DNA of 64,000 nucleotides from Emiliania huxleyi CCMP1516 (taxonomy: Eukaryota). The stretch covers positions 248,001-312,000 of the forward strand of contig NW_005202428.1 of NCBI RefSeq assembly GCF_000372725.1, given 5' to 3'. Within the stretch, counting starts at the first letter, position 1. Each line of letters opens with the position of its first letter. A program made the position numbers and the translations under genes. This document shows, one piece after another, positions 9,122 through 60,423 of this stretch. The notes below the pieces were generated by a model that ran no database searches, was not told the DNA's origin, and saw nothing but the letters and a program-made list of their open reading frames with translations.

Positions 9122-12100
9122 ATGAGTGGCGAAAGTCCACCCTACCACTCTGTAGCCGAACCCAGTCGCCTTCCGATGATGGTGGAAAGGGCGATGGGTG
9201 AAAGGGCGCCGCGCGACGAGGACAGGGGCTCCCGTGTCAGATCTGGCGGCAGCAGCAGCGCACCCTCCCCGGGCATCCTGCTGGCCATCTCGGGTCCCTA
9301 TGCCGAGCGCAACTTCCAGATTCCGGCCGCGGGCGGCCTCATCGGGCGTTCGCGAAAGTGCACGCTCTCGCTGCTGCACGACTGTGAGGTGAGCCACAAC
9401 CACGCGCTGCTGGAGGTGGTGCGCGGCCACCTCTGCATCCGCGACGTCGGCTCCACCTTTGGCACCTACCTGAACGACAAGCGCCTCTCAGAGCCCAAGC
9501 GCGCCTCCGAGGCGCACAAGCTCAAGCCGTGCGACTGCATCAAGGTGGGGCAGACCTGCCTGCGGTGGAGGCCGGCGCAGGTGCTCCGCTCCTCGTTCGA
9601 CGTGTCGGTGCCGCGGGAGCCCATGCCGCTCACCGAGGTGGGATCGACTGTGCGCGCGCGCGCCTCCGCCGGCCCTGCGGCACCCGGGCCGACGCAGCTC
9701 AACTTTGTGGCGAGGCTGCTGTCGAGCGAGGGGCGGCTGTGAACAGCGTCTCTTCACACCTGTTGCTGTGAACAGGCGAGGCTTCTGTCGAGCGAGGGGC
9801 GGGCGGCAGGGCCGGACTCGCTCTCGCGCATGCTGCTCGCCCTCAAGACCTTTGAGGCGCAGCACGTGGATGCGGTCGCGGCGCTCAGAAAGGCGCCGTC
9901 AAAGCCCTTGTGTTGCCGCTGAGCTAGTCCCCTCCCCCGGTCGCCTAGCCTCTGCGCTGCCTGGCGAACGCCTGTATGCCATGCGCGCGGACCACGCTTG
10001 CGTGGATGCGTGGCTGGCAGGCTGACCCGTGTGCGAGGTCACCCGCGCACGGGGAAGCTTGTCGCCCCACCGCAGCACGCCGCACCGCACCACTCACTTG
10101 CACATCACTCACTTGCCGCCGCACGCCTCTGCGCACCGCACGCACGCAGCGCCGGGTGGCCTGGAGCGGGGGGTGCTTGCAGCTGCCCCCGCGTCNNNNN
10201 NNNNNNNNNNNNNNNNNNNNNNNNNNNNNNNNNNNNNNNNNNNNNNNNNNNNNNNNNNNNNNNNNNNNNNNNNNNNNNNNNNNNNNNNNNNNNNNNNNNN
10301 NNNNNNNNNNNNNNNNNNNNNNNNNNNNNNNNNNNNNNNNNNNNNNNNNNNNNNNNNNNNNNNNNNNNNNNNNNNNNNNNNNNNNNNNNNNNNNNNNNNN
10401 NNNNNNNNNNNNNNNNNNNNNNGGCGGTCGGACGCCTCCTTCCCCTGGATGCGGCCGCGTACTGGCACAAGCTGACCGCGCCGCAACTCACCTCCTCCGC
10501 GGCGTTAGGCGTTGCGCACGCCGCCTCCCTCACGCACCCGACCGCCCCGCGAGCCTGTCGGGTTGCCGCGGGCCGCCGCCATCGTCTCCTCTGCTCTAGC
10601 GGCGAGCGGCGCCGCCGCCGGAGCCGGAGGTAATAGTACTAGTAATAAAAATAGTAATCGTGATAGGAATAGGAATAGGAATCGTAATAGGAATAGGCGG
10701 CGGCGGAGGCGGCGGCGTGGCGCTCAGCCTCTACTCTGACGAGCCGGAGGTTGCACGAGATTGCACGAGATTGCACGAGATCACACGAGATTGCACGAGA
10801 TTGCACGAGATTGCACGAGCCTCTACTCTGACGAGCCCGAGGTTCGTGTCCGCGCACCCTCCGTACTCTCTCTCCTCTCCCTCTCCCTCTCCCTCTCCCT
10901 CTCCCTCTTACTCCCTCTCCTCTCCCTCTCCCTCTTACTCTCCCTCTCCCTCTCCCTCTCTCCTCTCCCTCTCTCCTCTCCCTCTCCCTCTCCCTGCCGC
11001 GGCCGTGGGCAGAATGTGCGGCACTCTGCACACTCTCGCCACCGCCGCGGATGCGCCTGCTCGCAGGTAGCGCGGCTGCACGAGCTGGCGCGAGAGCTGC
11101 AGCTTCTCCGCTCCGACGCCGCGATCCTGTGCGGACGAGATTGCGCGAGATTGCGCGGGATTGCACGAGATCGCACGAGCTCGCACGAGATTGCTCGAGA
11201 TTGCTCGAGACTGCACGAGATTGCACGAGATTGCACGAGACTGCTCGAGACTGCACGAGATTGCACGAGATTGCACGAGCTTGCTCGAGCTAGCACGAGA
11301 TTGCACGAGCTTGCACGAGATTGCACGAGATTGCACGAGCTTGCTCGAGATTGCACGAGCTTGCACGAGATTGCACGAGATTGCACGAGCTTGCACGAGA
11401 TCGCACGAGTCGCACGAGATTGCTCGAGATTGCACGAGATCGCACGAGCTCGCACGAGATTGCACGAGCGATCGCACGAGATTGCACGAGCTTGCACGAG
11501 ATCGCACGAGATTGCACGAGCTTGCTCGAGATTGCACGAGATCGCACGAGCTCGCACGAGATTGCACGAGCGATCGCACGAGATTGCACGAGCTTGCTCG
11601 AGATTGCACGAGATCGCACGAGATTGCACGAGCTTGCTCGAGATTGCACGAGCTTGCACGAGATTGCACGAGATTGCACGAGCTCGCACGAGCTCGCACG
11701 AGATTGCTCGAGCTAGCACGAGATAGCACGAGCTAGCACGAGATTGCACGAGCTCGCACAGCGCGTCTGTCGGGGATGCTCCTCCCCGCTTGCGCACAGC
11801 CTCTGAGGAGCCGCCGCCCCCCCTGCTCCCTGGCCAACAGGCGCCGCCCGCGGCTGGCGCCTGGGACATGTCCAGGACACGTCCGCGACATGTCGCCGAC
11901 GCGTTCCGCAGGTGCGACGCCCTGCCTTCGAGCCGGAGGAGAGACGCCTCCACCGCTCCTGCACCGCTCCTGGACCGTCCCGCAGGCGCGACGCCGCGCC
12001 TGCACGCGGGCTGGCGGCGTCCCTCACACCCCCTCCNNNNNNNNNNNNNNNNNNNNNNNNNNNNNNNNNNNNNNNNNNNNNNNNNNNNNNNNNNNNNNNN

Positions 12101-15100
12101 NNNNNNNNNNNNNNNNNNNNNNNNNNNNNNNNNNNNNNNNNNNNNNNNNNNNNNNNNNNNNNNNNNNNNNNNNNNNNNNNNNNNNNNNNNNNNNNNNNNN
12201 NNNNNNNNNNNNNNNNNNNNNNNNNNNNNNNNNNNNNNNNNNNNNNNNNNNNNNNNNNNNNNNNNNNNNNNNNNNNNNNNNNNNNNNNNNNNNNNNNNNN
12301 NNNNNNNNNNNNNNNNNNNNNNNNNNNNNNNNNNNNNNNNNNNNNNNNNNNNNNNNNNNNNNNNNNNNNNNNNNNNNNNNNNNNNNNNNNNNNNNNNNNN
12401 NNNNNNNNNNNNNNNNNNNNNNNNNNNNNNNNNNNNNNNNNNNNNNNNNNNNNNNNNNNNNNNNNNNNNNNNNNNNNNNNNNNNNNNNNNNNNNNNNNNN
12501 NNNNNNNNNNNNNNNNNNNNNNNNNNNNNNNNNNNNNNNNNNNNNNNNNNNNNNNNNNNNNNNNNNNNNNNNNNNNNNNNNNNNNNNNNNNNNNNNNNNN
12601 NNNNNNNNNNNNNNNNNNNNNNNNNNNNNNNNNNNNNNNNNNNNNNNNNNNNNNNNNNNNNNNNNNNNNNNNNNNNNNNNNNNNNNNNNNNNNNNNNNNN
12701 NNNNNNNNNNNNNNNNNNNNNNNNNNNNNNNNNNNNNNNNNNNNNNNNNNNNNNNNNNNNNNNNNNNNNNNNNNNNNNNNNNNNNNNNNNNNNNNNNNNN
12801 NNNNNNNNNNNNNNNNNNNNNNNNNNNNNNNNNNNNNNNNNNNNNNNNNNNNNNNNNNNNNNNNNNNNNNNNNNNNNNNNNNNNNNNNNNNNNNNNNNNN
12901 NNNNNNNNNNNNNNNNNNNNNNNNNNNNNNNNNNNNNNCGTCGCCGCCAGCCGGCGCTCTCCCTCCCTCCGCACCTCTGACCAGATGGCCCTCCTCCCCC
13001 TCTCTCCCGCCAGGCGGCGCTCTCCCGCGCGGCATGCGGCGCCAGCCTCGAGGAGGCGTCGGCTCTGCTGCCCGACGTGCCGGCCTTCCTCGCCGAGCTC
13101 TCCTCCGAGCAAGCCGCCGCCGCCGCCGCCGCCGCAGACGCAGACGCGCCGCCCGTGGGCGGCGCCAGCGCGCGCCGGCGCATCAGGGCCGAGGCCGAGC
13201 GGCTGCTGGCCGCTGGCGCGGCGCCCCCCCTCGCTGCTGCCGCCCTCTCGCGCCCCTCCTCGCCGCCGCTCGGCGCGCCGGCGGCCGACGCGGCCGCCGG
13301 CGGCGAGGGCGGCGGCGCGTTCGGCCGCCGCGCCGATGTCAGCGAGCGGCGGCGGCGCCACTTGCTCGAGCTGCAGCTGCTCTCGCGCAGCGAGTGCGAG
13401 GGGGCGGGGTGCGGCGGCGAGGGCGGGTGGGCGGGCGAGGGCGGCGGCGAGTGCAGCGGCTGGGAGCCGAGGCAGGGGCCGGGGCCGGAGACCAACCGCC
13501 TAGCGGGGGTCGGAGGCGGGGCTGCCGCGTGGATGGGGGGGGTGCCGGCCAGCGCGCCGTTTTGCTGCGAGCGGCACCAGGTGCAGGGCCTCATCTTCAA
13601 CGAATTCACTAGCTGATTCATTGACTCGAATTCATTGACTGCCGCCAGGCGGTGACGCCGACCCTCGACTGCTACGACGCGCGCGAGGAGGGGGAGGCCG
13701 CGCTGCCGGCGGGCCTCGACTGCGCGTGCCTCTGCGCGTCGCTGCAGGGCGAGGCGTGCACGCTCGCGGTGTGGGTGATGGACGAGCGCGCGCCAGCGGA
13801 GGCCGCGCTGCGCGCGCTGCGGCGGCGCGCGCGGCTGTGCGGCTCCGGCGTGGCACCCTTGCAGCATGTGTGGCTGCAGGCCGTGTCGGAGGACGCGGCG
13901 GCGTGGCTGGACGACGCCGGCGTGTCGGGCTGCGGCGAGTGGCTGCTGTGCGCCCACCTGTCGGCCGACCTCGAGCCGGCGGAGGGCGCGCAGAGGCGCG
14001 GCGGCGAGGCGCCGCTGCGCGCGCGTGCCGCCTCTCCCTCCCTCCCCCTCCCTCCCGCGTCGACCTCGCCCGCCCGTCTCCCGCCCAGGCGCTGCGCGCG
14101 TGCCGCCTCTCCCTCGTTCGCGGGCTCGCCTCCCTCCACGCGGCTGGCCTCTCTTGCGGCGGCGCACTCTCCCTCGCCGACGTCTCCTTCCCGCTGCGGC
14201 AGCACACGCCCCACCCGGCGGCGAGCGCCGCCACCCTCTTCCACGGCCCTCTGCGGCCGTCTGCGGCCGCACCGGCCGCGGGCGAGCCGCCCTCCCCTAC
14301 CCCGCGGTACCCGAACCCGCCCTCCCCTACCCCGCGGTACCCGAACCCACCGGCCGCGGGCGAGCCGGCCTGCGCGGCGCTGCTCTGCCTCCGCGCGGCG
14401 CCCGCGGCCGAGGGCGGCTTCGCGGCGGACGTGGCGGCCCTCGCGCCGGTGCTGGCCAGCCTTGGCTCCGGCGAGGGCGGCGGCGCGGGCGGCGACGAGG
14501 GCATCGCCGCGCTGTGCGGCGCGATGGCGCACGCGCAGCCGCTCTGTCGGCCCGCGGCGGCAGCGCTCGCCTGCCACCCCTACTTCACGGAGGGCGCGGC
14601 GACGGCGCTCGGCGACGCGGCGGAGGAGGCGAGCGACAACGACTCCGACTCCGACTCCACGTCGTCTCGCCACTCCGCGCCGCCGCCGCCACCCGACCCG
14701 ACCAGCGCGCAGGCAGCGGCTGTCTGGGCGGCGGCGTGGGCGGCGCGGCTCGAGGCGGCGGAGGCGCTGCCGCCGCTCGTCGTGCGTCTCTCGGCTGCCG
14801 ACGCGGCGTTCGCCGAGCAGGCTGCGTGCGGCGCGAGTGGCGGGCTCGCCCCGGCGGCAGGCGGGGCCGGGAGGGGCGCAGCGTGGTCCTCCGCCGGCCA
14901 CGGTACCCGAACCCACCCTCCCCTACCCCACGGTACCCGAACCCACCCTCCCCTACCCCCACGGTACCCGAACCCACCCTCCCCTACCCCACGGTACCCA
15001 AACCCACCCTCCCCTACCCCACGGTACCCGAACCCACCCTCCCCTCCCCCACGGCACCCGAACCCACCCTCCCCTACCCCGCGGTACCCGAACCCACGCG

Positions 15101-18581: not shown

Positions 18582-18654
<73 letters not shown>

Positions 18655-18820
18655 CACCCACGCGCACCCACGGCACCGTGGGGCTCCTGTCGCGGTTAGA
18701 CGTGGAGACGCGAGGGTTGCCCCCCCTTGCCCCACCACCTCGTGTGTGTGGAGAAGTTTACCTTACCTTACCTTACCTCGTCGGCGACTTTGCTGCACGC
18801 CGTCTCAGAAGTTTTTTTAC
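17540..18820 (+). repeat. Host repeat (paralog of 56345-56525, minus) interrupted by the retro-like insertion 17676-18777
   Basis: 17540-17675 plus 18785-18820 align with the uninterrupted reverse complement of 56345-56525. Confidence 0.8.
17676..18777 (+). mobile_element. 5'-truncated non-LTR-retroelement-like insertion: ORF remnant, (CA)n, 3' region, (TTACC)n tail
   Basis: TSD TCGTCGG (17669-17675, 18778-18784). The empty site is visible in the paralogous repeat near 56390. The 3' end is shared with other copies. No RT domain in this fragment. Confidence 0.8.
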
Positions 18821-20862: not shown

Positions 20863-20920
<58 letters not shown>

Positions 20921-21545: not shown

Positions 21546-22703
21546 TTTCGCCGCGCATCCCCTCGGCGGCGATCGGCGTCGCTACGACGGGGAGCCCGTA
21601 CCGCCACGCGTCGACAACCTGTTCACAGCTGCAGGTGTGAAGAGACGCTGTTCACAGGTACGGCTACCTAGCCACGAGCGCCGACCAGCCTTGCCCTTGA
21701 TCCCTGCGCCGTACCGCAGCGGCGCGAGCAGCACGCGCGACGCCGCCAGCACGTCGAGGCTGGGCGCGTAGCCGCAGACGTGCAGGCCCGTGTCGGGCGA
21801 GTGCAGGCGCTGCACCGCTGCCGTTGGGTACGCGCCGTAGATGCGCAGCTGCGCCTGCGGCATCCTGGCGCGGATGCGCGGCCAGATGTCGCTCGCAAGC
21901 CAGCGAACAGCGTCGACGTTGGGGGGGTGCTTGAACCCTCCGACGGTGACGAAGTCTGCGCGCGCACCAAAGCCGTTCGCGCGGCCGTATCCGAAGCCCC
22001 GATCGCCTGGCTGCGCGTCGGGCGCCGCCTCGGCGCAGAAGAAGGAGGCGAGGGCGAGCTTGTGCGAGGGGATGCCGTAGGAGGCGGCGAGCAGCTGCTG
22101 CTCCACCGGCGAACAGACCAGGGTGAGGTCGGAGCGATGAACCGCCGCCAGCTCGCGCAGCAGGTCGCTGCTGCCTGCCGAAGGCGTGTGTGCGAGCGCG
22201 GCCGAGATCGCAGCGTCCGACGAGGCGCCTTGCTCGAGCGTCTGCTCGACGACGAGCTGCCTGCCTCGGCGGAGCGCGTGCATGTCCTGCATGTCGAGCA
22301 CGCGCAGCGCGGCGGGGGCGAGCTCGCGCACCCGGAAAGAGAAGGCCTCCTCGGTGAAGAAGCGGTCGAAATTTCCGACCACGTCCGGCGCCGTGCGCTC
22401 AAGCACTCGCGCGAGCTCCGCCTCGCGGTTGGGCGGGCATTCGTACGCCTGGACGCCGCGCGACTGGAGGCGCTCCACGTATGCGCTCTTGGGCGCCGAC
22501 GACGCCGCGAAGGAGCAGTCGTAGCCCCACCGCTGGAAGGCGTGCAGCAGCGCCTCCGTGCGCACGCCCGCGGCGGAGGAGTCGGGCTCGGGCCAGAGCG
22601 AGGAGAGGAAGAGGCACGAGGCGAGGCGGCCGCCGCTGAGCGAGAGCGTGGGCAAGCGCGCCGCAGCTCGAGCGGAGCAGCGCGTCGCGCCAGCGGCAGT
22701 CAT
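21145..22703 (-). CDS. GT4-like (Glyco_trans_1_4) glycosyltransferase; intron 21619-21689
   Basis: WPEPDSSAAGVR, DRFFTEE, LDMQDMH, GGFKHPPNVDA and LAPLRYGAGIKGK|VVDAWRYGLPVVATPIAAEGM. Contains a poly-Gly insert. Confidence 0.85.
21619..21657 (-). mobile_element. 39-nt acceptor cassette in the GT4 intron
   Basis: The reverse complement reads CTGTGAACAGCGTCTCTTCACACCTGCAGCTGTGAACAG. Confidence 0.85.
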
Positions 22704-27703: not shown

Positions 27704-30700
27704 ATGGTGGTGACTCTCGTGGCCACCGGCCTCCTCCTACCAACGCCGGCTCTCCGTCAGCTCAGAAGCGGCGTGCCATTGTCCAGCCTCCTCGATGACT
27801 TGGCGGAGGAGGCCTCAAACTCGTGGCTCATGCGGTTCCTCAACCGGCCAAAGGAGGACGCGGCGCTGCAGTACGAGCAACAGGGGTACAACACGCTTGA
27901 AGGCATGAGCACCCGCCTCGAGGTGGAGCGCTCGCCCATCTCCGAGCAGCCGGTCATGGACTCGGGGGGGTGCTGACCTCTCTCACCCGGCGAGACCCGA
28001 CTAGTCCGGCGGACCGATGATAGGTCATGTTCACGACGAGCCTCGACGGCACCGATCCGAGCTTTGATTTCGAGCGATGGGAGGTCCACCGCTCGCAGGC
28101 CCGGTACGGACGGCTCGTGCTTGGCATCCTCTTTGGGAAAACCACGCAGCGGATCGGCCCGACCGTGCTGGCGGTCTGCCTCTTCTCGTCGCTCGTGTTC
28201 GCATACAACAACGTCTTCCTGGCGGCGACGCAGTTCATCGCGGTGAATCCGCTCTACCCGGAGCTGCAGCTGCCGCTGACGCCGTTCGAGCTCACCGCGC
28301 CCGTCCTCGGCCCGCCGCCCGCCTTCCGTGGCTGATCTCGGCTGATCTCGGCTAATCTCGCGGCTGATCCCGGCTGATCTCGGCTGATGTCGAGCCGTAG
28401 GCTTGCTGCTCGTCTTCCGGACCGACACGGCGCCGCCCGCCCGTCGCCCTTGCCACCTCAGCCCGCCGCCGCACTTTGCCCGCCGCCACCCTTAGCCCGC
28501 CTCCGCCCTTAGCCCGCCTCCGCCCTTAGCCCGCCTTCGCACTTAGCCCGCCTTCGCACTTAGCCCGCCTTCGCACTTAGCCCGCCTCCGCCCGCTCCAG
28601 GCGTACGAGCGCTTCAGCCTCGGCTCGCAGCTCGCGTGGGAGATCGCGGCCCTCTGTCAATTAATTAGCCATCACGTTAATGAAATCAGGCTCGCAGCTC
28701 GCGTGGGAGATCGCGGCCCTCTGTCAATTAATCAGCCATCACGTTAATGAAATCAGGCTCGCAGCTCGCGTGGGAGATCGCGGCCCTCTGTCAATTAATC
28801 AGCCATCACGTTAATGAAATCAGGCTCGCAGCTCGCGTGGGAGATCGCGGCCCTCTGTCAATTAATCAGCCATCACGTTAATGAAATCAGGCTCGCAGCT
28901 CGCGTGGGAGATCGCGGCCCTCTGTCAATTAATCAGCCATCACGTTAATGAAATCAGGCTCGCAGCTCGCGTGGGAGATCACGGCCTTTGTCAATTAATT
29001 AACCATCGTATGAATGAAATCAGGCTCGCAGCTCGCGTGGGAGATCACGGCGAGCATGCGCTCCCTCATGCGGCGGCTGACCGCCTTCACGAGCCCTGAG
29101 CTCTTCTCGGACGGCGAGATATAGCCGAGATAAGCCGAGATGCAGCCGAGATACAGCCGAGATACAGCCGAGGTAGCCGAGGTGTAGCTGAGGCGTAGCC
29201 GAGATAGCCGAGGTGTAGCCGAGGTTGGACGGCGAGCGCGCGGCGGCGGAGGACGTGTCCACGACACGCCCACGACACGTCCACGACACGCCCACGACAC
29301 GCCCACGACACGTCCACGACACGTCCGCGACACGTCCGCGACACGTCCACAACACATCCGCGACACGCCCACGACACGTCCGCGACACGCCCACGACACG
29401 TCCGCGACACGTCCACGACACGTCCGAGACACGTCCACGACACGTCCGCGACACGTCCACGACACGTCCGAGACACGTCCGAGACACACCCCCGCAGGCG
29501 AGCGCGCGGCGGCGGAGGACCTGATCCAGGCGTGCACGCTGGTCCACGGCTGGATCATGACCTCGTACCTGCGCGGAGGGCTCGACCGCCGCCGCTCGGC
29601 GCCCATCGACGAGATGCAGGAGGCGCTGCTGCGCGCCGCGCTCGGCGTGGAGGAGGGGGAGGAGGAGGAGGAGGGGGGCGGCGAGGCGCGAACCGATGCC
29701 GCGGAGCCGGCACCGGCCCCGTCGCCTTACCTGTGGATCTCGGCCATGGCGGTTGGCGTCTCGCAGCGGCTGCCTGGCCTGACGGACCAGGAGCGGCCAT
29801 ATCTCCCCATATCTCCCCATATCTCCCCATATCTCACTGCCCGGCCTGACGGACCAGGAGCGGCCATATCTCCCGATATCTCCCCATATCTCCCCATATC
29901 TTACTGCCCGGCCTGACGGACCAGGAGCGGCCATATCTCCCCATATCTCCCCATATCTTACTGCCCGGCCTGACGGACCAGGAGCGGCCATATCTCCCCA
30001 TATCTCCCCATGTCTCCCCATATCTTACTGCCCGGCCTGACGGACCAGGAGCGGATCGCGATGGACGACCTCCTCACGACGGCGGCCACGAGATTTCTTT
30101 TTCGGACATTTCTTTCTTTTGTGCCGACGGGGATTCTTCCGTTTCTAGGTGGACCACGCAACACCGATTTCTTGGAGCACTTGGGCGCAGCCGATTTCTT
30201 CTTTCTTCGTGCGTAGGTGGCCGCCGACCTCGCAAAGTGCGAGAAGCTCGTCTCGACCCCGATCCCGCTCGGCTACACCCGCTCGTCGGTCCGCCGCCCC
30301 GTTGTGGCCAGGTGGCCTCCCGAGTTTCCCCGAGATTCTCCGAGATCATCCGAGCACGAGTTGGGGCGTAGGTCCGGTTCCTCTGGATCTGGATCACGCT
30401 GCTGCCCTTCGCCCTCTCGCGCACGTTCGCCGACTTCCAAGCCGGCACGTGGTGGGAGGACAAGCCGAGGTGACCCGAGACTGCCCGAGATCACCCGAGA
30501 TCACCCGAGATTAGGCACGTGGTGGGAGGACAAGCCGCTCGCCGAGCTGCCCGTGCTGCTGACCACGATGCTCTTCATCTCCTTCATCTTCCTCTCCATC
30601 GAGGACACACACATACGCACACACGCACACACGCACGCACGCACACACGCACGCACGCACACGCGCACACACGCACGCACGCACGCACGCGCACACACGC

Positions 30701-44301: not shown

Positions 44302-44682
44302 GGTGAGTATGTGAACGGCGCCTCTTCACGGCACGCGCTGTGAGCAGGTGGGGCGCCATCGTCGACGAGTGGGCAGAGTAGCCTAGATGCCGGATTGCGG
44401 ATCCGTGTACTCCGATTGGCACTCAAACACACATTCAGCGGTATGCAGCTGTCTCCATTCATACAGCGCGTTGGCTCTCGGAATTGCGCTGCACGCACCC
44501 TTCGCATTCCCGCCCTGACTGTGGCATTCTCGTGAGGTCAGGCAAACGAGTTGGATCTGCTGGAGGGGGCCGGTAAGTGCCATGCGGCAGACCCGGCGGC
44601 ACCGCCTTCGCCGTTTCCCTCGCCGCCGGAGCTTGCCCCTCCTTCCCGGATCTCGCCACCGCTGCTCCCCTTTGCATCCCAG

Positions 44683-45800: not shown

Positions 45801-47627
45801 TCAAGCTCTGCGCCCCGCGCCGCCGTCCACGAGGGCCTGCAAGCCGCGCCGTAGCCTCGCCGCCGCCTCTCGCGTCTGCTCGAGCGGCAAGTTGGCGTAG
45901 CAGACGCGGATGTGGCCCGGCGCCCCGCACGCAGATCCGGGGATGAGCGCGACGCCGTGCTCTTCCGCGAGCGTCCGCACCGCGGCCACGTCGTCAGCCG
46001 CGTGCGGCGGCAGCCGCGCCACGAGGTAGATTGCGCCTAGCCACATTCATGCTGAGCTCGTGCGAATCGGCTCGTGAAAAGGTAGCCGCGCCGCGTGGCA
46101 GAGGGCGCCGGAGCCGCCCTGCACCGCGCCATCGCCGAGCGGCGCGAGGGCGGCGAGGACGAGCGCCTTCTGCTCCGCGAGCCCCGCAACGCGCTGCGAC
46201 ACCCAGCCGCGGCCGGCGGCGAGGGCGCCGAGGGCGACCTTTCGTTGGCAATGAACAACGATCCGCCCTGGTTCTGGCGCCAGCCACGGGGCGCCGAGAG
46301 CGGCCAACCTTTTGCGAGGCGATCGACGGGCAGATGGCGATGGTGTCTTGCACCTTCAGCATCTCGGGCGCGAGGGCGGCCGGGAAGGAGACGTACCTGG
46401 TTGGGAAGCGAGCATCATCAGTCACTGTGGATCGCACCTCCGGCGCGAGGGCAGTGACGGAGGCGTCGGACATGGCGGCGGCGGCGGAGGAGGGGCTCCC
46501 CAAGAAGAAGAAGAAGAAGAAGAAGGACAAGGCGCGCGCCGAAGCCCCGCGAAGCCCTCCCCTCTCTCTCTCTCTCTGTGCTACATGTCCATCACCGACT
46601 GCGAATGACGTACTCAATCCGTTCCTTCGGTAGGCCGGGGAGCAGACACGCACCCCACTCGCCAGCCCATCATGCCGAACGCCTTCGAGAAGGAGAAGAC
46701 GTTGATCACGTGCTCGCCGGAGACGCACTCGTGCGGCGCCTTACGGGACGTGTCCGGGACATGTCCGGGACATGTCCCAGAGCAGCGCCGCCCAGCCTCG
46801 CGACTCATCCGCCTCGCCCGCGTACTCGAAGTGCTCGTAGGTGTTGTCCACCACCTGCAGGACACGTGCCGGACATGACCCGGACATGACGCGTGCGGAG
46901 AAGTGCTCCTGCCGGCTGTCCGCCACCAGCCAGACGCCGTGCGACGCGCAGAGCCGGCTCGCCTCGTCCAGCGTACCGCGCGGGATCATCACGCCCGTGG
47001 GGTTGCCTAGGATGCAGAAGCGGTGAATGGTGAATGGCGGAGGAGAGCGCAGTCATGTGTCGCCACGCCGGTGGCGTTGCCAGGGTTGACCAGCGTCAGC
47101 ATCCGGAGCGGAGGCCTATCGCCGCGGGCGCGCGCCTCCAGCTCCGCCCTCAGCGCGCCGATGTCGGGCTGCAGGTCCGGCAGCGAGGGGGGCAGCCACA
47201 GGTCGAGCTGTGAGCCGGTCATCTGCAACGCCATGAGGTGGTTGAAGTAGTACGGTCGGAAGAGGGCGGCGGCGTCGCCCGCGTCGAGCAGCGAGAGCAC
47301 CACGTTCGTGTACGCCTGGTTCGCTCCCGCGGTCACCATCACCTCGCCGCCGTCGATGCCGTTCTCGACGCGCAGCTTCTCCTTGAGCGCGGCGCGCAGT
47401 TCGGGAAGGCCGTCGTCGGGACCGTAGAGGCTGGTGCTCCGCTCGCCCATCGCGGCGACGCCCGCGGCCAGTGCCGCCTCGGGTGGCGGCCAGTGCACGA
47501 TGCCCTGTGCGAGCGAGAGGACGCCCTCCCTGCCACGCAGCATCTGCTGCATCTGCACAATGCAGGGAGTGTCGGTGGCGCGGACGCGCTTGCTGGCCTG
47601 CGTGGCCATGCTGCGGGCGCCACGCAT
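45801..47627 (-). CDS. PLP-dependent aminotransferase class I/II, multi-exon (e.g. introns 47007-47080, 46855-46926)
   Basis: LSLAQG, YGPDDGLPELR, VTAGANQA, NPGNPTG, DNTYEHF, SFSKAFGMMGWRVG (PLP lysine) and HIRVCY. Confidence 0.88.
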
Positions 47628-48780: not shown

Positions 48781-49873
48781 ATGCTCCACTCCGGCGAGTT
48801 CTGGAAGAGGGGTGGCGCAAAGCACGCCGCCCTCATGCCGAGGCGGTTCACTCCCAGCGACGCCGCCGCGCGCCTCCTGGCATCCGGCCCGGAGCGGGCG
48901 CCGCTCCCCGTGCCACGCGACTGGCAGGCGCTCGGCTGGCAGGAGCTGCTGCTCGCGCGCGGCTGGCTGCGCCGCGACGAGTTCGCGGCGGCCGGCGCGG
49001 CGACGCAGGCGGAGGCGGTCAGCCTCCTCTCTTCGGCGCTCACCTACCCGCTCACCGCAGCGGCAGCAGTCGCGGCACTCTGCGCGCCCTCCGAGGGCGA
49101 GCCGCGGCGGATCTGTCTGGTCGGCGCGCGGGCGGAGGCGCTGCTCCCGCCGCACTTTTGGAGCGAGACTCGCGCGCTCGCCAGCGTCTGCGACGCGCCG
49201 CTCGAGATCTCGTTTGTCGGCCCGCGCGCTGCGCCGCCGTCTCCGCCCGCGAGCGAGGAGCCGGGGCTGGCGCTGCTGCGGCCGTCTCGCGGAGAGCTGT
49301 TCCACGAGTCCGCCCTCGGCCGGGCGCTGCTGCTCGGAGGTGGCGGTGGCGGCGGCGGCGCGGCGGGCGGCGCGGCGGGCGGCGCTGCGGGCGGCGCGGC
49401 AGCGGCCGCGTCTCTCGCCGTCAGCGCCTCGAAATCGGGAGGGCTGCTCTCGACGGGGCGGCCGGCGGGGGGAGCGGGCGCGCCGGCGCCCCTGCCCGAC
49501 GCGTTCCTGCTCTTCAACCCGGGGCTCGGCCAGCCCGGCTGGGAGCGCGCGTGGTCGCCGACCTTGACGTACCTGGACATCGTCTCTTCACACCCACTGC
49601 TGTGAACAGGAGCGCGCGTGGTCGCCGACCTTGGCGGCGCTCTCTCGCGCGCGCCGGCCCGTGATCTTGACAGCCTTGGGCGAGGAGGACGCGCGGGCGG
49701 ATGCCGCCTTCTACGCCCGCTGGCTGGAGGAGGAGGGGGGCGACGGAGGCGGGGGCACCGCGCCGGGCGGGCTGCGGTACGCCTCCAACCCGTGGGCCAG
49801 TCTCGTCAACACGGCGGCGGCGGGGGGCGCACCGTCGCGCGCGAACGCGCTCGTCGCAAGCTACACAGTGTGA
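48781..49873 (+). CDS. MSS51-like C-terminal domain protein; intron 49543-49609
   Basis: LTYPLT, LVGARAE, SFVGP, PDAFLLFNPGLG..W.PTL and NPWAS motifs. Confidence 0.65.
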
Positions 49874-50330: not shown

Positions 50331-51870
50331 ATGTCCACCTCCGGCGCACACGACGGCACGACCACCATCACGGTGTTCTTCGAAGGCACGGCCAACCCGA
50401 TACGGCCCGTCGTGACGCAGATCGGCGAGCTGTTTGCGCTCTGCGATGCGCTCGACGTCACGGATCCGCAGGTCGCAGCGGGCGAGGCGAGCCATCTCAA
50501 GATGGGGTTCGATGGCTGTGGTGTCGTCGCGGGCCTGCCAGGTGCGCTCTTTGCATTCGGGCTCGCCCCGCAGTGCGACGCGGTCGTGGCGCGGCTGGAG
50601 GCGCTCGCCTCGTCCTCAGAGGCGTGTCGGCAGCGTCTGTCGGTCAACGTGCTCGGCCTCTCCCGGGGAGGCATCGCGGCGCTCCAGCTGGCGAAGAAGC
50701 TGGAGTCGGCCAGCACCGCGCTGCGCGACCGGCTCCGCCTCGCGCTGCTGCTCTTCGACCCCGTGCCCGGTAACCTCGTCTTCACGGCCCGCCACCTCGA
50801 CTTCCTCGCCGCCGTCGGCATGCCAGGCGTCCTCACCACGGCCAGCGGCGTCTTGGACCTCTCCGCCTCGCCGGTGTCATCAGTGCTTGCCGTGTACCCG
50901 CACGAGCCGCTGCCCGACATCGCCTTCCACGCACCCCTCCTGCCCGCCAGCCTAGACGCGGAATACGGATTCACGTCTTCCAACCAGCACTCGAGAGACA
51001 CGTCTCCGCTGTTTCCGCTGTATTCCGCTGTGTTCACTGTACTCCTATCCGCTGTATTCATGCGTCGCTCTGACCACGCTGCACACCACCGTCTTCCCGC
51101 CCTGAGGTTGGCGTCCTCAGCACGCAGGCCCGCCTACCCGCCCGCCGCGGAGGTGGTCGAGGACGCGACCCTCGGCTGCCACCAGGGAGCCCTCTACCCC
51201 GTCGGCCTCACGCGCGGCTCGCCCGTCGCCGCCGCGTGCCGCCTGTCCGCCCACCGGCTCGTCGAGGCGCTGCGTGAGAGAGGGACACGGCTGCGGCCGG
51301 CCGCCGGCGGCGGCGGCGCGTTCGCCTCCGAGTGCCTGCGCGATTGCGAGGCGGCGCTGCGCGAGCCAGAGCGGGCGAGCCGCCGGATCGCGCATTGCGC
51401 CGGCGGGCGATGGCGCCGAGACGTGGCCGAGATGTGGTCGGGTCGCCGTTGCGCCCGGGGCTCTCCTCCTCCCTCTCCGCCTGCTCCTCCTCCTCCCCCT
51501 CCTCCTCCTCCTCCTCCTCCTCCCCTCCACTCACACCACCTCCCTCCCTCCCAAGGCCCGGCCGGAGCGACTGTGCGGCGCGCGAGGTCGGCGCGCCTCC
51601 TCAACCGCCACCACCTGTGAACAGCGTCTCTTCACACCTACTGCTGTGAACAGGTCGGCGCGCCTCCTCAACCGCCACCACTTGGAACTACTCGCCGCCG
51701 AGGCGCCCGGCGAGGCACGCGCGCGCGTCGAGGCGGCGGTGGCGCAGCCCTCGGCGATGCCTCTCTTCCTGCTCTCGGTGCAGCGCGGCGGAGGCGAGGG
51801 CGGGGGTGCATCAGCCGCGCAGCGGCAGGCGCTGGATGCGCTGGCGTGGCTAGAAAGGAGGGGAGTCTAG
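50331..51870 (+). CDS. Alpha/beta-hydrolase-fold protein (GxSRG type); introns 50942-51127, about 51407-51555, 51587-51653
   Basis: VFFEGT, FDGCG, VLGLSRGG nucleophile elbow, LFDPVPG and GCHQG. Confidence 0.7.
50951..51127 (+). mobile_element. ~180-nt introner-like element, copy 3
   Basis: Full-length similarity to 2072-2260. Flanked by GCCCGCC(AG)/GCCCGCC(TA). Confidence 0.8.
51615..51653 (+). mobile_element. 39-nt acceptor cassette in intron 51587-51653
   Basis: Lies between perfect 28-nt direct repeats (51587-51614, 51654-51681). Confidence 0.88.
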
Positions 51871-52887
51871 CGTCAGCGGAGGACGAGACGGTGGCGGACG
51901 AAACAGGCGACGTGGCGTGTCTTGAGAGACGGCCCTCTGACTGTCTGAGAGAGATTTGTGAGCTCTTCCGTGTGCGGTGTGTGCGCACGCGTCTTTTGAG
52001 TCGTAGAGCTTTACCTGGCATGTAATTTTATGTACGTGTATCCGGTGCGTATCAAGGGGCGCTACACCTCTGGGGGGGCACCGACCACCGGTGGACCCCC
52101 TGCGCAGCACCAGCGACCAGCCCACTGCGGAAACGCGCGGGGCCCCGGGGCTCCACTAGTCTTTACTAGCACAAACTCCAAATAGAGGGGGCAGATTTGG
52201 AGATCTCGAGGAGTACACATACAGCGGATAGACCCTCTAACCATCAGAAAACTCCGACCTGATCGGTCGTACTGACCGCCGACAGATCTTCACTCCAGAC
52301 AGCAGACACGAGACCCAGGCCGACGTCTGCACGCGGCCGGCCGGGCGAGAGGCTTGACACGATCCGACCCTGCGAGACCCTGACGCTGCTGCTCTAGCTA
52401 TCAGACATGCACTGCTGACTGCTGCCACAATGTGCGACCGGTGCTGGCCCACTTGGCGGCCTTCCTTGGGCCAGGTACCAATTTTGTCGAATTTATTTCA
52501 AAATCTGCAGGCGCGGAGCGCCTGCGAAAATTTTGAAGAAATTTGCAGTCGGGCCTGATTTTCATCAAGATCTTTCAAATTTGCGGTGTGGAGTTGGGGG
52601 ATGGGGGGTGGGTTAGATTAGGGTTATTATAGCATACTAGAGGTCCCCTGCGCGGGCCCCGCCCCCCCCCCTCCTGGGGGCGGGGCCCTTGCGACGGAGA
52701 AGAGGCCAAAATTGTACAGCAGCAGACGACGGACAACGAAGCAGTAGAGGCTTGCTAGGATAATTGTAAGGCCGCCGTCAGCCGGGTTTAGATGTGTCGT
52801 TTTCGCGGGGAGGTGCCTTAGTGCCAGGTGCACCACTCACACACACACACACCAGGTGCACCACTCACACACACACCAGAGAGGCCA

Positions 52888-55352
52888 AAATCACCCCGTT
52901 TTTGCCCATTTTCGGTCATCCGTCAAAATATCTGAAGATCTGACCGGGGGATTCTCCCCAAACCTTGCTCAGCTGATCCAGCCTGGGGGGAAGGCCAGCC
53001 CTGGGCAAAGAAACCAGCACCTCATCGGGCTTCCCTGAGCGTCACAGCTCGGTGATCGCGCCGGCCGGACACCACTGTAACGTCCGTTCCGGGCATTTGA
53101 ACGCGACCTTCGGGGGCAAAGACATGGGCTCTATGGCTCAGACTGGACTCCTCTTGGTCCCTTCTGATGCCCTAGGCCACACCTGGGCCTTACCTGGGGT
53201 CCTAGGGGCCGGGCAGGGTTTGCCCCCCCCAACTGGCCCGAAGAACCTTAACCCTCCTACGCAGATGGTTTTGCGTGATTTTGGCCCCCCCGCCCCTAAC
53301 ATTATGGCCGACAGAGCGGCTGGGAGGCTAATGTTAGGGGCGGGGGGGGCCGATCTGGTGTCCAGACCAGGGCTCGGCGCCATGAGCAGACGTATTTTGT
53401 CGTATCTGCGTAGGAGGGTTAATGGGCAAAGTCGGCGAAATCGAAAATGCCTGTTTTCTCGTTTTTCGTGCACTACCGGCCACAGCCGTGCCTCAGGCAT
53501 CCAAGTCGGGCAACATGCGGGCGGCACGGGACCGGAGGCTTGGCCCTAGGCCGAAGAAAGGGTATGCGAGGGTGCTCGCGAGCACCAAAGCCACTTGCGG
53601 CATTCGCCAGCAATCCCTGCTGCACACAAGAAGCGAGCGGTCCGGACGTCTGGCGGCCACTGAAGGCAATCGCACGGTGGGGGAGGCGGTCCGCGTGTTA
53701 CGTACGTCTTTGAAAAGTGACACCGTCGCTAGTTTACCGGTCGCCGAGTGAATTCGGACCCGCTCGAGTCGCTGCGAGGAGCCCTCGGGAGTGCCTCGGC
53801 CGGCTCTAGCAGCGACGCACACACTCGCTACTGCTGACTAGTCGCGCCGAGGGCGGAGAGTGACTCACACGTAGCTTAATATGTCAGCGATGCAGCTCGC
53901 ACAAGGGCGGCGGAGCCGAGGGCAGCGAGTGTGGTGGCGGCGACGGCTGGTGGCCGGCCCGACGGTGCCTCGGCGCGTAGCACACCTATAGGCGGTTTCG
54001 TCGGCGGTTCCGGTTCTGCGCGCGCTGGCGACGGCGAGAGGGACACCGGGTAGACCCGGCGCGACCGTGTTGGCCGAGGGCGGCGGCAGCGGGCGCGACA
54101 GAGCTGGTGCTGCCGCGAGCAAGACGGCAGCGACGCGCGGCAAGCCGCACGCTGCCATGGGCGAACCTAGCGCATGAGCCGTCGAATGGCCTACGACACG
54201 GGGCGAGGAGCGGCTCAGAGCTCGGCTGAGAGTGTCGCACAGCTGGCGCCAGCAGCAAGCAGCTCACCTACAGAGAAACGCGTTTGAGTGACACACTAGC
54301 GAGAGATCGTCGAAGCTCGCAGACGCTGTTCACCTCGAGATCACGGCGGATTGCTTCGCATAGTACCTATATTCTTTACTTTGGACTGTGAATGTGATGT
54401 TCCACACCTCATTCAAATGCTATTCACACCTCATTCAAATGCTCTTTTCATTCAAATGTTACTCCATCTACTGTGGAACATCACATTCACAGTCCAAAAT
54501 CATGCATTAGAAGAGTATATAGGGGGTATATCTTTGATTAGAGATTCATTTAGGGCTGATGCAACCTCCGACTCCCTTCCCGTACATCCAACTGCTCCCG
54601 CCACACCCTTCTCGGACCATCGCGCTGCTCTTCGCGCGAGTAAATACATGATTTCGCGCCTTCTGGAACGCCTGCTGATACCGTCTTCCCGGCAGCCGGC
54701 AGCCTCGATACGGCCATCTCGACGACAGAAACGCGGCCGAGATCACTCGCAGACGAGTCGTGCGTGTGTGTGTCGTCGATCGCCGAGCTAATCGGTGGTC
54801 TCGCGCCGCTGTTGAAGCACACACTCTGCGCGAGCACCTCGCTTCATCATCCTCGCCGGCACAGGACGCGTCACTGGTACTGCTCGACGAGGCCGAGATA
54901 ATGCGCGAGACGGGTCGGAGGCCGCTATCTCGCACCCAGCTGTGTCGCCATCGCGCTCAGTATGGCCGCCTGTGCACGAGTTGGTCGCGTGGCGGCTTTA
55001 CGGATGAGTCGCGGCGATAATTTGTTATAGGTCCAGGTGATAGTCCTGGATGGGCAATGCATACGCCTCACTGGGCCTTAGATCGCCCGACCGCGTCCCG
55101 GTGCTCTGCCGTCGGATTTGTGACTCCGCCGCACTGGATCAGCTGAGCAAGGTTCGGGGAGAATCCCCGGACAGATCTTCAGATATTTGACGGATGACCG
55201 AAATCACCCCGTTTTTGCCCATTTACGGTCATCCGCGTCAAAATATCTGAAGATCCTACCATAGGATTCTCCCCAAACCTTGCTCAGCTGATCCAACCTG
55301 GGGGGAAGGCCAGCCCTGGGCAAAGAAACCAGTACCTCAACCGGCTTCCCTG
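52888..55352. repeat. ~150-nt direct repeat (52888-53039, 55201-55352) with adjacent inverted partial copy (55134-55203)
   Basis: AAATCACCCCGTTTTTGCCCATT..CCTTGCTCAGCTGATCCA.. occurs twice, plus its reverse complement. Confidence 0.85.
54380..54498. mobile_element. MITE-like element with 27-nt perfect inverted repeats
   Basis: TTTGGACTGTGAATGTGATGTTCCACA and its reverse complement at 54472-54498. AT-rich. No clear TSD. Confidence 0.55.
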
Positions 55353-58300
55353 AGGCTAGTGCCATTTCACTCTGACACGCTAATCTTGAAAACGTCTCCA
55401 ACGGAGCTCCGTGTTGCTTCCAGCGCCCTCCCCCGCGCTTCCTGCGGCCATGGCCGATGATCCTAGGAAGAGAGGTCATCTGGCTACCGCGAGAGCGACC
55501 CAACTCGTCGACATCGTCCGATGATGGTGCCGCAAAGTCAGCCTTCGGAGGCTATCGTGGGGTGGAGCCGGCAGTAGCCGTGACATGTGGTTCCACCACC
55601 CCTCGTAGGCTTTGCCTCTGACCGCCACCGTTCCCAGGCTGCCTACTGGGATGGAAAGGAAGGCTCGGCGAGCGTATAGAAGCGTGCTCGACCTCGTCGT
55701 GGCAACCTGTACGGCAGCGCTGGTAGGCGCGATGAGCGTCGTGCCACCTGACCCGAGACAGGTCGCAGGCGTCGTACCGAGCGCGTCGAGACCGTGTCCT
55801 GATGTGGTCTGCACGGGTGAGTCACGTCGGCGTCAAAGGAGCGACGTGTGACCTGTCAGAGCTTGATCTCTGATCTCAGCGGCGTCGAGTCGTCTCCGGC
55901 GCGCAACAAATGTACCTCCCCAGGACGCGCAGAGGCAGCTGCGACCCCGCCGAGTAGACGGCGGCACACCGCGCCACCTGCTGTGTGCCGCCGTCTACTC
56001 GGCGAGGTCGCAGCTTCCACTGGAAGGCACCGAGAGGTACATTTTTCGCGCAATGGTCAAAATCAAGGTTTTGTAACGCGGGCTGTGCCACAGTGAAATG
56101 GCACTAGCCTGAGCGTCACAGCTCGGTGATCGCGCAGGCCGGACACACCACTGTAACGGCCATTCCGGGCCAACAGCGCTGCGACCGCGAAGTGGCGGTG
56201 GACATGCTCCCATGTCGCCGACGCGGCGCCGGAGTGGCCGGCGCTGCTCGCCGCGACCACGACGGCTACTCTGATACGGGGTCTCTGGGCCGACCCGTCC
56301 TACCCGACGGTGGCACTCTTCCACGTCTCGCTCATGACACATGAGAAAAATTCTGAAACGGCCTTGGAGTGCAGCAGAGTCACCGACGAGTCGGTCCGCG
56401 TGCCTCCTCGTGTCCCGTACCGTTCTCACACATCCATAAACTCACTAAGGCCCCACTGAAGCAAGCCCTCAATCCTGAATCCTCAGATTTTACGGGGTAG
56501 ATTAGGACGCTGTCCACCCCCTATCAGAACCCTAGGGGTACCCCAAGTTTCTGAACGCATGCCGAGACGCTCTATATCTCACTCGAACTGTGAAGGGGAG
56601 GGCGGAGGGGCAGCGGTGGAAACGCTCCACACCCACACGGCCGGCCACACCTGCGCCCGTCCCCCCTCGAGCCCCACACGCACACGGCACGGCGGCGGGG
56701 CCTATCCCGCGCGAGGAGGGCCCGAAGAGAAGAGCTGGTCGATTCGCTCTGCGGCAGAGCCGTCTGCCGGCGCAAGCAGCGGCTGCTCGTCCGCCTAACG
56801 AGTGAGTAGGGCGGCTCAGGAAAGGCTTGTCGTGAAACGCATGCTGGGCCGCCCGCCCGCCCGCCCGCCTCTTCGCCCCTTTTCCTACCCCTCCGCCGCC
56901 CCCGCCCCCGCCGCCCGCTCGTTGCCTACAGGCAGAGCAGCCGCGACGAGGTGCAAAGGCTGAGACTGGCGCGACCCTTCCCCCCCCGCCCCGCCCGCAG
57001 GTTGCCTCGCCCTCCTCCTCCTCCTCCTCCCTCGCCCCCGCCTCCCCCTCCTCCGCCGCCTCTCCCGCCTCCCCCGCCGCCTCCCCCGCCGCCTCCCCCG
57101 CCTCCTCCGCCGCCTCCGCCTGCCCCGCCTCTCTCCACTCATCCCGCCGCCCGCGCGTCGCCGCGGGCTCCGCCAACACCGGCTGCGTGAGCGCCGGCGC
57201 AATCGGCACTTGCTCCCTCTCGGGCGGGGACAGGTCGCGGTCCACACGCGGACGCGGCGGCGCTGCCTCCGGCTCTGGCGGAGCCCCGTCCAGCCGACCA
57301 ACCACAACCTCGCCCGCCTCGGCTGCCTCCGCCGCCACCCCTGCCGCCGCTGCGGCGTCGAAGCGGCCGCTCAGCGCGGCGGCGGAGGCGCGAGCGATGT
57401 CCGCCAGCGGCACCATCACCGGCACCTAGCCACGAGCAAGGTAATCACACCACCAGCTGTGAACAGGCGCCACCGCCGGCAGTTAGCCACGAGCAACCCC
57501 CACCCGCAAACCCGCACCCTCGAGGCCCACCCTCCCCTACCCCCCCGGTACCCGAACCCACCCTCGAGGACCACTCCCCGCGCTGCCTGCCAGCGGCCAC
57601 CGCCGCACACACCCGGCAGGGCACGTCTAGTACAGTCGAGTACAGTCTAGTACAGTCTAGTGCAGACACGAGGCACTACTAGCAGAGCCGCACGCACCCC
57701 GCAGGGCACGTCTCGCATCTCGACGCCAACAGCCCCGTCGGCGTCGGCGGCGTCGCCCGTCAGCGGCGAGCGGGAGTACCGTCGGTGGTTTCGTCGGAGC
57801 ATCCACTGCCTGCGAGAGTAGCCGAGAGTAGCCGAGAGTAGTCGAGACTAGTCGAGACTTAGCCGAGATGGGCCCGTCAGCCGTGGCTTCGTCGGCGCCG
57901 TGACACACACAGGTCAGAGTGTGAGAGTCGTGCAGTGCGCCGTGCATCGCATGAATACACGAAGACGGTGCACACAGCCGAGGAATGCCGAGTCAGCGAC
58001 ATTTGTGCAGCCGAATGCAGCCGAGGGCGCGTCCCCGCGCGCGTGCCAGCTGGAAGACGGCCGGTGTGAAAGACAGCACGAGCCCGCACTAGCCCGCATT
58101 GTCGCTTCTAGAGGCCTCTGCCGGAGAGCGCCGCCGCAGAGCAGCGCCGCCAGCGCCACGAGTCCGAGGAGGGACGGGGAGGGGATCGTCTCGGCGTCGA
58201 GGCAGTCGACGCGCCTGTACACGTCGCCTGCGAGCAGGCCGCAGGCGGAGGTCTGCAGGCCGGGAGCTGCAGACGCTCTCTCTGGCCGCAGGCCGGGGTC

Positions 58301-59010: not shown

Positions 59011-60423
59011 ATGGCAGCGAGCGTATCACTGCCGATGCGTGAGCCGTGCTACGTCGCGGTCGGCGTCATGACCGTGCCTCACTACCGGAATCGGCGCGAC
59101 GCCGCGAGGCAGACGTGGATGACGGGCAGCAACGTCGGCTCGACGGTGGTCGTCCGGTTCCTCATCCGCGCTGGCGGCTTGCATCCGGACGTGCTTGCCG
59201 AAGCGAAGCGGGAGCAGGACGAGCACGGTGACATGACGTTCCTCCCAGTGGCATCGGAGCACGGCAGCCCGCCGCAGCGTGGGCGCGTGCTCACGCTGCA
59301 CGCCTGGACGAGGCGTGCGACCGCGGTCTGCCCGACGGCGCGGTGGGTGAGCAAGGCGGACGACGACGTGTACATCGTCACCGTGGACTGGGAGGCGCAG
59401 CTGCGGATGATCGCCGCGGGACGCGAGGGACGCGCCATGCTGCACGGCAAGGTTGTGTGGCACAACTGGAACGTTAAACACTTTGTGCCGCACTCGTTTG
59501 ACTACAGCTACAACCCGGACAACTGGAGGCGCGTCATCGACTACCTCGGCGGCGACGAGAGCAGGGCGCGCTTCCCGGACGAGCGCCGCCGCTTTGAGCT
59601 CTGCAGGACGCACGGGGCCCGCCAGTGCGAGTGGTGCCCTGCCGAGGCAGAGTGCACCGGCCCGTTCTAATCAGTTAATTACTGAATGAATCAATGAACT
59701 CATTAGGTGCCCTGCCGAGGCAGAGTGCACCGGCCCGTTCTAACCAGTTAATTACTGAATTAATCAATGAACTCATTAGGTGCCCTGCCGAGGCAGAGTG
59801 CACCGGCCCGTTCCCCTTCCCCACGGGCTGGCTGATCACCATGTCGGCGCCGCTCGCGCGCGCCCTCGCCGGCTCGCCGGCGGTGGCCGCGGAGGTGGCC
59901 CGCGCGGAGCGGCTGACCCGCTCGTGGGGAGGGCCTCTCGTAGAGGACGTGTGGCTGGGCTCGGTGTGAACGGCGTCTCTTCACACCTGCTGCTGTGAAT
60001 AGGCCTCTCCTGGAGGACGTGTGGCTGGGCTCGGTGGTGCACCGGGCGCTGGCAGACTGGCCGGTGCTGTGGGTGCAGATGGACTTTGCCCACCAGTTCA
60101 ACGGCGACTGGCCGGCCGTGTGCCGCGCCGAGAAGCGGCCGCGCAGCTGCGGCTACGAGTTCAACACCACCGTCGTCTACCACAACAAGCGGACCCGCAA
60201 GGTGCACGCGCACGTCGCCGGGGAGGCGGGCGCGCACGTGCCGCCGCAGCCCGCGCTCAAGTGCGCCGCGTCCGCGGAGTGGCGGTACCTCAACCACCAC
60301 ATGGCCAACTTTGCGGAGTACGTGCGCCGGGAGAGACGGCCGAGCGGCAGCGGGCTCTGCGTGCTGTACGAGCCGCGCTTCCTCGTGCCGCCCAAGCACA
60401 ACCGCCTCTTCCACCACCCGTAG
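59011..60423 (+). CDS. GT31-like glycosyltransferase; introns 59634-59779, 59933-60002
   Basis: RRDAARQTW, VRFLI, EQDEHGDM, SKADDDVY, PFPTGWL and EDVWLG. Confidence 0.85.

Follow-up and report, generated by a model that had tools for sequence, protein, structure and literature searches.

Introduction

The closest described relatives of the sequence reported here are Introners. In Table S6 of Gozashti (2022; PMC9860276) five families are entered for Emiliania huxleyi CCMP1516, three averaging 37 nt and two 70 nt, with the target-site duplication (TSD) given as '?' or N, and the Introners described in the available portion of that paper have duplications of 3-9 bp. Dataset S2 of a later survey (Gozashti, 2025; PMC12130899) contains fam24, a family of five copies of 70 nt and of class Unknown, annotated with '10bp terminal direct repeats', a TSD of 2 bp and the words 'co-opt 5' carry 3''. 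In these portions of the two surveys the E. huxleyi families are of unknown mechanism, and a long duplication is not recorded. We have analyzed a 64,000-nt stretch of the CCMP1516 genome (contig NW_005202428.1, positions 248,001 to 312,000; hereafter the window), in which a cassette of about 39 nt forms the 3' half of predicted introns in separate genes. Judged by its description in the dataset, fam24 may be the cassette family, a match that bears on any claim of novelty; the motifs of the cassette were not found in the accessible parts of 14 supplement files from Introner surveys.

The cassette is a real, abundant, intron-forming insert of E. huxleyi. Although it acts as an Introner does, its copies are not similar from end to end, typically carry no terminal inverted repeats (TIRs) and lack a short duplication. 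The tails of introns already in place are its likely template, and such copying would be an undescribed route to new introns. No description of long exon duplications in E. huxleyi introns was found in the literature searched, which mostly left out subscription papers and the 2013 genome paper.

Abundance and geometry of the cassette family

Metagenome contigs were scanned once with a cassette pattern that required the AG end, giving at least 144 matches at no fewer than 123 loci (L numbers below) and at least 129 distinct contexts. Eleven contexts lay too near contig ends, which left 118 testable among the matches listed, alleles and array units included; collapsing alleles and arrays leaves at least 96 unique sites. 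The initial annotation of the window, which counted five genes, was right about those five, but the cassette reaches far beyond them, and a sixth, diverged copy within the window (44309-44347) was missed. Cassette patterns had no match in viral contigs and none in prokaryotic genomes.

Copies at these unrelated loci are similar in sequence, as Introner copies are. The sequence before the cassette duplicates the sequence after it in 93 of the 118 contexts, against 8 of 1165 mismatched controls, which is the duplication expected of intron gain by double-strand break repair of the Daphnia type. The unit formed by duplicate and cassette is 59-78 nt long, with a mode of 67-69 nt. The two bases following the AG are donor-like in 112 of the 118 contexts (GT 54, GC 53, GA 5, other 6), and in 83 of 93 a G comes just before the upstream copy. 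Thus the module provides the acceptor and the duplicated target the donor, as expected for the dispersed, non-autonomous module that had been proposed. Because the scan demanded the AG end, copies located in the flanks by their core alone, irrespective of the 3' end, were also counted: 24 of the 26 separate ones end in AG|G. The cassette occurs once per 7.6 kb in the gene-biased contigs and five times in the 64 kb of the window; taken with a haploid genome of 98 Mb (PMC10290126, excerpt), this density suggests thousands of copies genome-wide, as a rough figure.

A simple codon model placed the cassette in sense orientation at 59 of 73 sites, and in 37 of 40 strong calls. The model is weak, since it scored 49543-49609 slightly better in antisense and since several antisense calls look like sense genes on inspection (L035, L087, L075), and only L050 and L038 are therefore counted as antisense below. 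Intron phases at codon-model sites numbered 22, 9 and 6, and 35 of 37 inserts, if retained, would stop or shift the reading frame.

Structure of the cassette

Gapped alignment of the 88 non-array contexts gave 56 above a threshold set at 99% of controls. The duplicate begins at the first base after the AG in 49 of these and within 2 nt of it in 55, so the donor exon is not carried along. The 5' end, in contrast to this fixed 3' end, is variable: among 26 perfect duplicates the unexplained insert measures 34-53 nt, and the duplicates themselves are 14-34 nt long in 25 cases and 44 nt in one. What the introns share is only their 3' part of about 39 nt, and the 5' halves are locus-specific. A fixed 3' end with a variable 5' end and a variable duplication is the pattern of short interspersed nuclear elements (SINEs) and of truncated long ones (LINEs). 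The short duplication of fixed length is absent, and typical copies have no TIRs, L062 being the one exception. Some 5' junctions show microhomology.

These observations argue against the discrete 39-nt unit with terminal direct repeats of the initial annotation. The 10-mer taken for a terminal repeat closes a second, incomplete 29-nt unit; it is preceded by G in 90 of 118 contexts, with an A before that G in 45, and in L024, L108 and L051 it is prolonged to 15-25 nt. An 11-nt tandem unit in L041 resembles the cassette core, and the copy at 44309-44347 looks like a hybrid of both; from the sequences, a unit of this type is a possible origin of the 29-nt unit. Nor was the expected longer parent element found within the 118 contexts: the longest run of shared upstream sequence was 23 nt among 6876 non-allelic pairs. 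Rfam returned no match (one chance hit, E 0.7), and the internal complementarity pointed out earlier is not significant, as six sequences folded no better than their shuffles (z -0.2 to -1.6).

That intron length has a floor, also suggested at first, agrees in part with the perfect duplicates of 14-19 nt, whose longer insert still brings the unit to 67-68 nt. Acceptor-like sequence stands ahead of the three shortest units (59, 61 and 63 nt), but the comparison testing for shorter units behind existing acceptors, a group contaminated by eight array units, was not significant (p=0.11).

Copies in the window

All five copies first annotated in the window end in AG followed by G and are flanked by exon duplicates, degenerate in the GT4 case (Table 1). 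With the copy at 9737-9775 (+) as the reference, two mismatches each were counted at 21619-21657 (-) and 51615-51653 (+), four at 59964-60002 and eight at 49571-49609. The downstream-exon duplicates of the four copies other than the GT4 one are 26/27, 30/31, 26/27 and 32/34 identical, counts that include a few bases of chance run-on. At 9710..9775 the cassette would contribute an in-frame stop, and the frame is predicted to return upon removal. Taking out 21619-21689 restores a glycosyltransferase motif that the homologues P0023 and P0028 have unbroken; a metagenome allele (L012) also carries this insert, and the insert of 51587..51653 is identical in another allele (L121). An open reading frame (ORF) for a galactosyltransferase lies upstream of the copy at 59933 and may belong to the gene that holds it. 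Pfam gave no informative match for the host genes of two of the five copies.

A partial copy at about 57446-57466 had been called antisense. It lies on the + strand with a 30-nt duplicate of its own, which appears to cross a stop codon, and it is probably in sense to a + strand gene, for which the codon score (11.4 vs 6.0) is weak evidence. The 11-nt 3' motif occurs 11 times in the window against 1.0 expected, a number reached in 0 of 100 shuffles; the 13-nt core alone is less decisive (6 matches, 2 of 100 shuffles). A 67-nt GT..AG stretch with an 8-nt duplicate has a cassette-like 3' end at 37275-37285 (-) but is otherwise unrelated.

Table 1. Cassette inserts and related features of the window
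Feature	Position	Strand	Composition
FHA gene insert	9710..9775	+	66-nt GC-AG; duplicate 9710-9736, cassette 9737-9775, exon copy 9776-9802
GT4 glycosyltransferase gene insert	21619..21689	-	71-nt GC-AG; decayed duplicate 21658-21689, cassette 21619-21657
Insert	51587..51653	+	67-nt GT-AG; perfect 28-nt duplicate 51587-51614, cassette 51615-51653
Insert	49543..49609	+	67-nt GA-AG; 24-nt duplicate 49543-49566, 4-nt spacer, diverged cassette 49571-49609
Insert	59933..60002	+	70-nt GC-AG; 34-nt duplicate 59933-59966, cassette 59964-60002
Insert	57410..57466	+	57-nt; 30-nt duplicate 57410-57439 (25/30), 5-nt spacer, 5'-truncated cassette 57445-57466
Sixth, diverged cassette 44309-44347 (10 mismatches)	44303..44347	+	in 45-nt GT..AG stretch, without long duplicate
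AT-rich 38-nt filler and 29-nt duplicate	28622..29051	+	67-nt period, six units
AT-rich 38-nt filler and 35-nt duplicate	59633..59813	+	two units
10-nt tandem filler	30444..30537	+	70-nt GC-AG unit
Aminotransferase gene EMIHUDRAFT_53483	46037..47080	-	six RNA-joined introns
Aminotransferase introns starting with decayed next-exon copy	46037-46108, 46239-46308, 46397-46653, 46855-46926, 47007-47080	-	other fillers

Probable removal of an insert in RNA

At 49543-49609 a contig joint skips exactly 67 nt in run X11, recorded as RNA, and in run X1, for which no kind is recorded. The ends of the joint are GA..AG if the gene is on the + strand, and GT..AG on the minus strand also fits. In the DNA-like run X5 the cassette is joined to the downstream exon, and in X3, also DNA-like, the site is spanned with the insert kept; a metatranscriptome, X13, has unspliced pieces and no joint among those listed. 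Since an empty allele would look identical to such a joint, splicing is the simplest reading of this site rather than a proven one. No empty site was seen in DNA, the insert being present in L012, L121, X3 and X5. Removal is predicted to restore protein motifs at two more sites, the GT4 insert (21619-21689) and a HECT gene at L050, where the domain becomes contiguous (positions 3-67, a weak hit, then 69-224) after 91 nt are taken out at AG|GT within the duplicate.

In X11 the cassette words of window 49577-49611 reach a summed depth of 14,241, compared with 108 for the host exon. Summed word depth is a poor measure and is not taken here as copy number or expression level; the depth could come from retained introns, from stable lariats or from a master RNA.

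Relations among copies

The 5' end of the insert sometimes runs into the duplicate of another locus, so that copies appear to have been made from copies. In L066 the additional 5' bases coincide with the end of the L057 duplicate, and both loci have the same variable 4-mer, one of 25 variants and seen in 4 of 118 contexts. Likewise, the extra 5' bases of L020 match the end of the L087 duplicate, again with a common 4-mer. Of nine pairs sharing at least 15 nt upstream, five also share the 4-mer against 1.2 expected (p=0.002), although the pairs are not independent.

Other arrangements resemble products of a jump between templates: 3'-terminal 15-25-mers are repeated head to tail, each ending in AG, in L024, L108, L051 and L050. 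Two cassettes are separated by a foreign 5' half, that is, by one whole G..AG unit, in L032, L056 and L018. Whole foreign units occur only inside such double copies and duplication is the rule, whereas reverse splicing would insert a whole intron with no duplication. In L062 two 3' ends face outward, with the terminal motif inverted at both ends and a flank repeat of 5-6 nt. L050 is a run of 15-nt cassette ends in antisense within the HECT gene, and L038 has a cassette in antisense within an aminotransferase gene; both genes are confirmed by Pfam. These copies nevertheless end at an AG flush with the duplicate, an AG that cannot be the acceptor there. Tandem arrays of 15-nt units like the last 15 nt of the cassette occur in L042, L047 and L050.

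Other fillers with the same geometry

The initial annotation missed that the geometry is common to many other fillers. In the window and the loci together there are 65 local duplications that lack the cassette and contain an AT-rich, a telomere-like or a 10-11-nt tandem filler, and 23 of the 65 have AG and a G(T/C/A) start, compared with 12.5% at random. Five of eight neighboring introns joined in RNA contigs open with a copy of the next exon, all five in the aminotransferase gene of Table 1, and each such copy is matched by at most 1 of 118 controls. The exon at 47079-47639 matches EMIHUDRAFT_53483 of CCMP1516 with 100% identity across 93% of its length. Across five coding stretches of the window, GC follows GG 138 times and GT 34 times, but the two are equally frequent at cassette sites, which points to co-option plus selection for GT.

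Telomere-like fillers of the TTAGGG type lie between long duplicates in L037 and L068, and their sequence suggests that breaks of this kind also received telomerase-type additions. Tandem fillers of 10-11 nt and of 30 nt are numerous in the window, several of them between duplicates of 20-30 nt, at 2740-2815, 3550-3890, 10750-10819, 11130-11760, 14294-14347, 14900-15098, 29230-29490 and 29797-30027. The database protein models for 46855-47080 (P0085, P0084) read through or mis-splice these introns, consistent with known annotation trouble in E. huxleyi.

Other features of the window

A 750-nt element resembling a miniature inverted-repeat transposable element (MITE) occupies 55356-56107, bounded by a 15-nt terminus in inverted orientation that is shared with 42774, L010, L046 and L064; in L010 and L064 a related terminus stands ahead of tandem arrays of cassette units. 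An intact TIR element may be delimited at 18536-20966 by two arms in inverted orientation, 103 and 83 nt long, 99-100% identical and about 2 kb apart. Very high-copy repeats, judged by contig depth in X3, cover 47324-48985, 50094-50647, 51756-53417 and 55080-56741. Two paralogous arrays of 156-nt repeats, which we take to be RCC1-like, lie in inverted orientation at 1-950 (+) and 25465-26420 (-), and a trypsin domain followed by FG-GAP repeats is encoded at 32247-34702 (-).

Discussion

The reading that we favor, with a probability of about 45%, is that the RNA of an excised cassette intron is copied from its AG end, with a staggered DNA break as the primer, that selection keeps the spliceable products and that the cassette spreads by relay. 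The break would leave 3' overhangs of about 28 nt, and one 3'-OH would prime reverse transcription at the 3' end of the excised intron. Copying would proceed for 34-53 nt, at times into the donor's own duplicate, or onto another 3' end after a jump. The copy would be joined to the other overhang, sometimes via microhomology, and fill-in would duplicate the target. Selection would retain duplicates starting with G|GT, G|GC or G|GA, and a length reaching about 65 nt. Each new intron would in turn serve as template, and the 67-73-nt arrays would arise later by slippage or unequal exchange.

This reading rests on the 3' end fixed flush with the duplicate, the variable 5' end, the long and variable duplication, the sense bias, the relay-like sharing between loci and the exact removal of 49543-49609, and it is favored by the flush AG ends of the two antisense copies and by the jump-like products; an excised intron RNA would be the simplest template that ends at AG. 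The geometry is that of target-primed reverse transcription, in which template jumping is known to occur. E. huxleyi introns are abundant in RNA data, with reads along their length in 89% of 535 inspected (Feldmesser, 2014; PMC4028052, excerpt), which we count in favor of an RNA template.

Several observations weigh on the other side. Among the 27 window ORFs scanned there was no reverse transcriptase, and in the RNA data, which consist of contigs, no free AG end is seen on any RNA. An empty allele could account for the joint at 49543-49609. The antisense evidence comes from two loci, one of which (L038) was found with a pattern that includes the AG end, and 25 of the 118 contexts have no ungapped duplicate. 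The geometry of the cassette is also that of unique AT-rich fillers, of telomere-like ones and of 10-11-nt tandem ones; AG ends without a donor are not enriched among the non-cassette duplications (18/65 vs 30% by chance), so selection alone can explain the AG ends there. Moreover, tandem arrays could act as DNA donors for the foreign units.

In a wider form of RNA-templated copying, the 3' tails of excised spliceosomal introns would be reverse-transcribed genome-wide into breaks with overhangs of 14-34 nt, and any intron could seed others without a transposon. We regard this extension as doubtful; if true, it would have made a large share of the approximately 70-nt introns of E. huxleyi, and most donors would be GC because donors would be copied exon sequence.

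The same staggered break might also be repaired from DNA, with about 40 nt copied from any template by theta-like end joining or strand invasion, or supplied as de novo filler, and with the AG end, orientation and length set by selection. End joining by polymerase theta is the kind of repair that we have in mind. One geometry with many unrelated fillers, some of them unique or telomere-like, speaks for such repair, as do the microhomology at some 5' junctions and the lack of enrichment of AG-only ends in other fillers; relay copying and foreign units fit DNA donors equally well, and in Daphnia staggered breaks give rise to introns with repeats of 4-12 bp (PMC4202315, excerpt). It does not, however, predict the flush AG in antisense L050 and L038, the outward pair of L062 or the in-phase tandem 3' ends, and carry-over of donor exon in frame, which should be tolerated at times, was never seen. 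DNA-templated repair is the main rival reading, possible but, in our judgment, rather unlikely.

A master RNA, either a SINE or a tandem 3' LINE tail, inserted with 5' truncation by ordinary target-primed reverse transcription would produce the fixed 3' end, the variable 5' end and the variable duplication, and the depth of cassette words in the X11 contigs fits it, a poor measure that intron retention could explain. We nevertheless consider a single master improbable: upstream sequence is shared over no more than 23 nt in the 6876 non-allelic pairs, Rfam gave nothing better than E 0.7, and the 25 variants of the 4-mer together with the locus-specific 5' extensions point to many donors.

That a transposase moved the cassette as a classical DNA Introner or MITE, or that transposition was one-ended and started from a terminal repeat, appears very improbable. 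The inverted terminal motif and flank repeat of L062, and the cassette arrays inside the MITE-like repeat in L010 and L064, would suit it; duplications vary over 14-34 nt, compared with the 3-9 bp of described Introners (PMC9860276, excerpt), and typical copies lack inverted ends and a fixed 5' end.

That the inserts are not introns but polymorphic insertions or assembly artefacts is hardly credible: RNA support exists at only one of the five window sites, where an empty allele would look alike, and X13 has unspliced pieces, but the same inserts recur in independent assemblies, retention would disrupt the protein in 35 of 37 cases, 112 of 118 have donor-like starts, and protein motifs are predicted to return on removal.

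How new introns arise is an open question; RNA-mediated propagation has been proposed, and a clear footprint of it has been lacking. Each young cassette intron records its target, in the duplicate, and often its donor, in the 5' overhang of the insert, so that donor-recipient chains are traceable over what are probably thousands of loci, in an alga that has been sequenced, can be cultured and has many strains. This route of intron gain would be undercounted by surveys that require end-to-end similarity or seek short duplications. GC donors in E. huxleyi (56% GC, 40% GT, 4% GA) have been ascribed to genomic GC content (Feldmesser, 2014; PMC4028052, excerpt). Donors copied from exons are a testable alternative explanation for the GC-AG majority (here GC 53, GT 54 and GA 5 of 118).

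Among the known routes to new introns, the tandem-duplication model of Rogers (1989) is said to place intron gain at AG|GT sites. L050 resembles it, with an AG|GT inside the duplicate serving as both splice sites, whereas most cassette copies have an acceptor from inserted foreign sequence. Target-primed reverse transcription of SINEs and of elements without long terminal repeats shares with the cassette a fixed 3' end, 5' truncation, a variable duplication and template jumps; in contrast, the cassette has no A-rich tail, no master element or enzyme was found for it, and its templates appear to be ordinary introns. Introners, like the cassette inserts, form dispersed similar introns in which the element carries the acceptor and the duplication gives the donor. 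They differ in that the cassette duplication is 14-34 nt, about 40% of the intron, that only the 3' half is shared, that the 5' end is variable and TIRs are absent, and that the copies are probably thousands whereas Introner families have 5-308. In the gain of introns at staggered breaks in Daphnia pulex, as in the cassette, of the two repeat copies the exon holds one and an end of the intron the other, with filler between them, but the repeats there are 4-12 bp and the filler is mostly untraceable (PMC4202315, excerpt), whereas the cassette has 14-34 nt and a recurrent filler probably copied from other introns. Finally, reverse splicing or intron circles, proposed for fungal Introner-like elements (Ares, 2024, preprint; excerpt), agree with our reading of the cassette in that the source is an excised intron RNA; reverse splicing, however, moves whole introns with no duplication, whereas with the cassette the target is duplicated and what moves is the 3' part alone.

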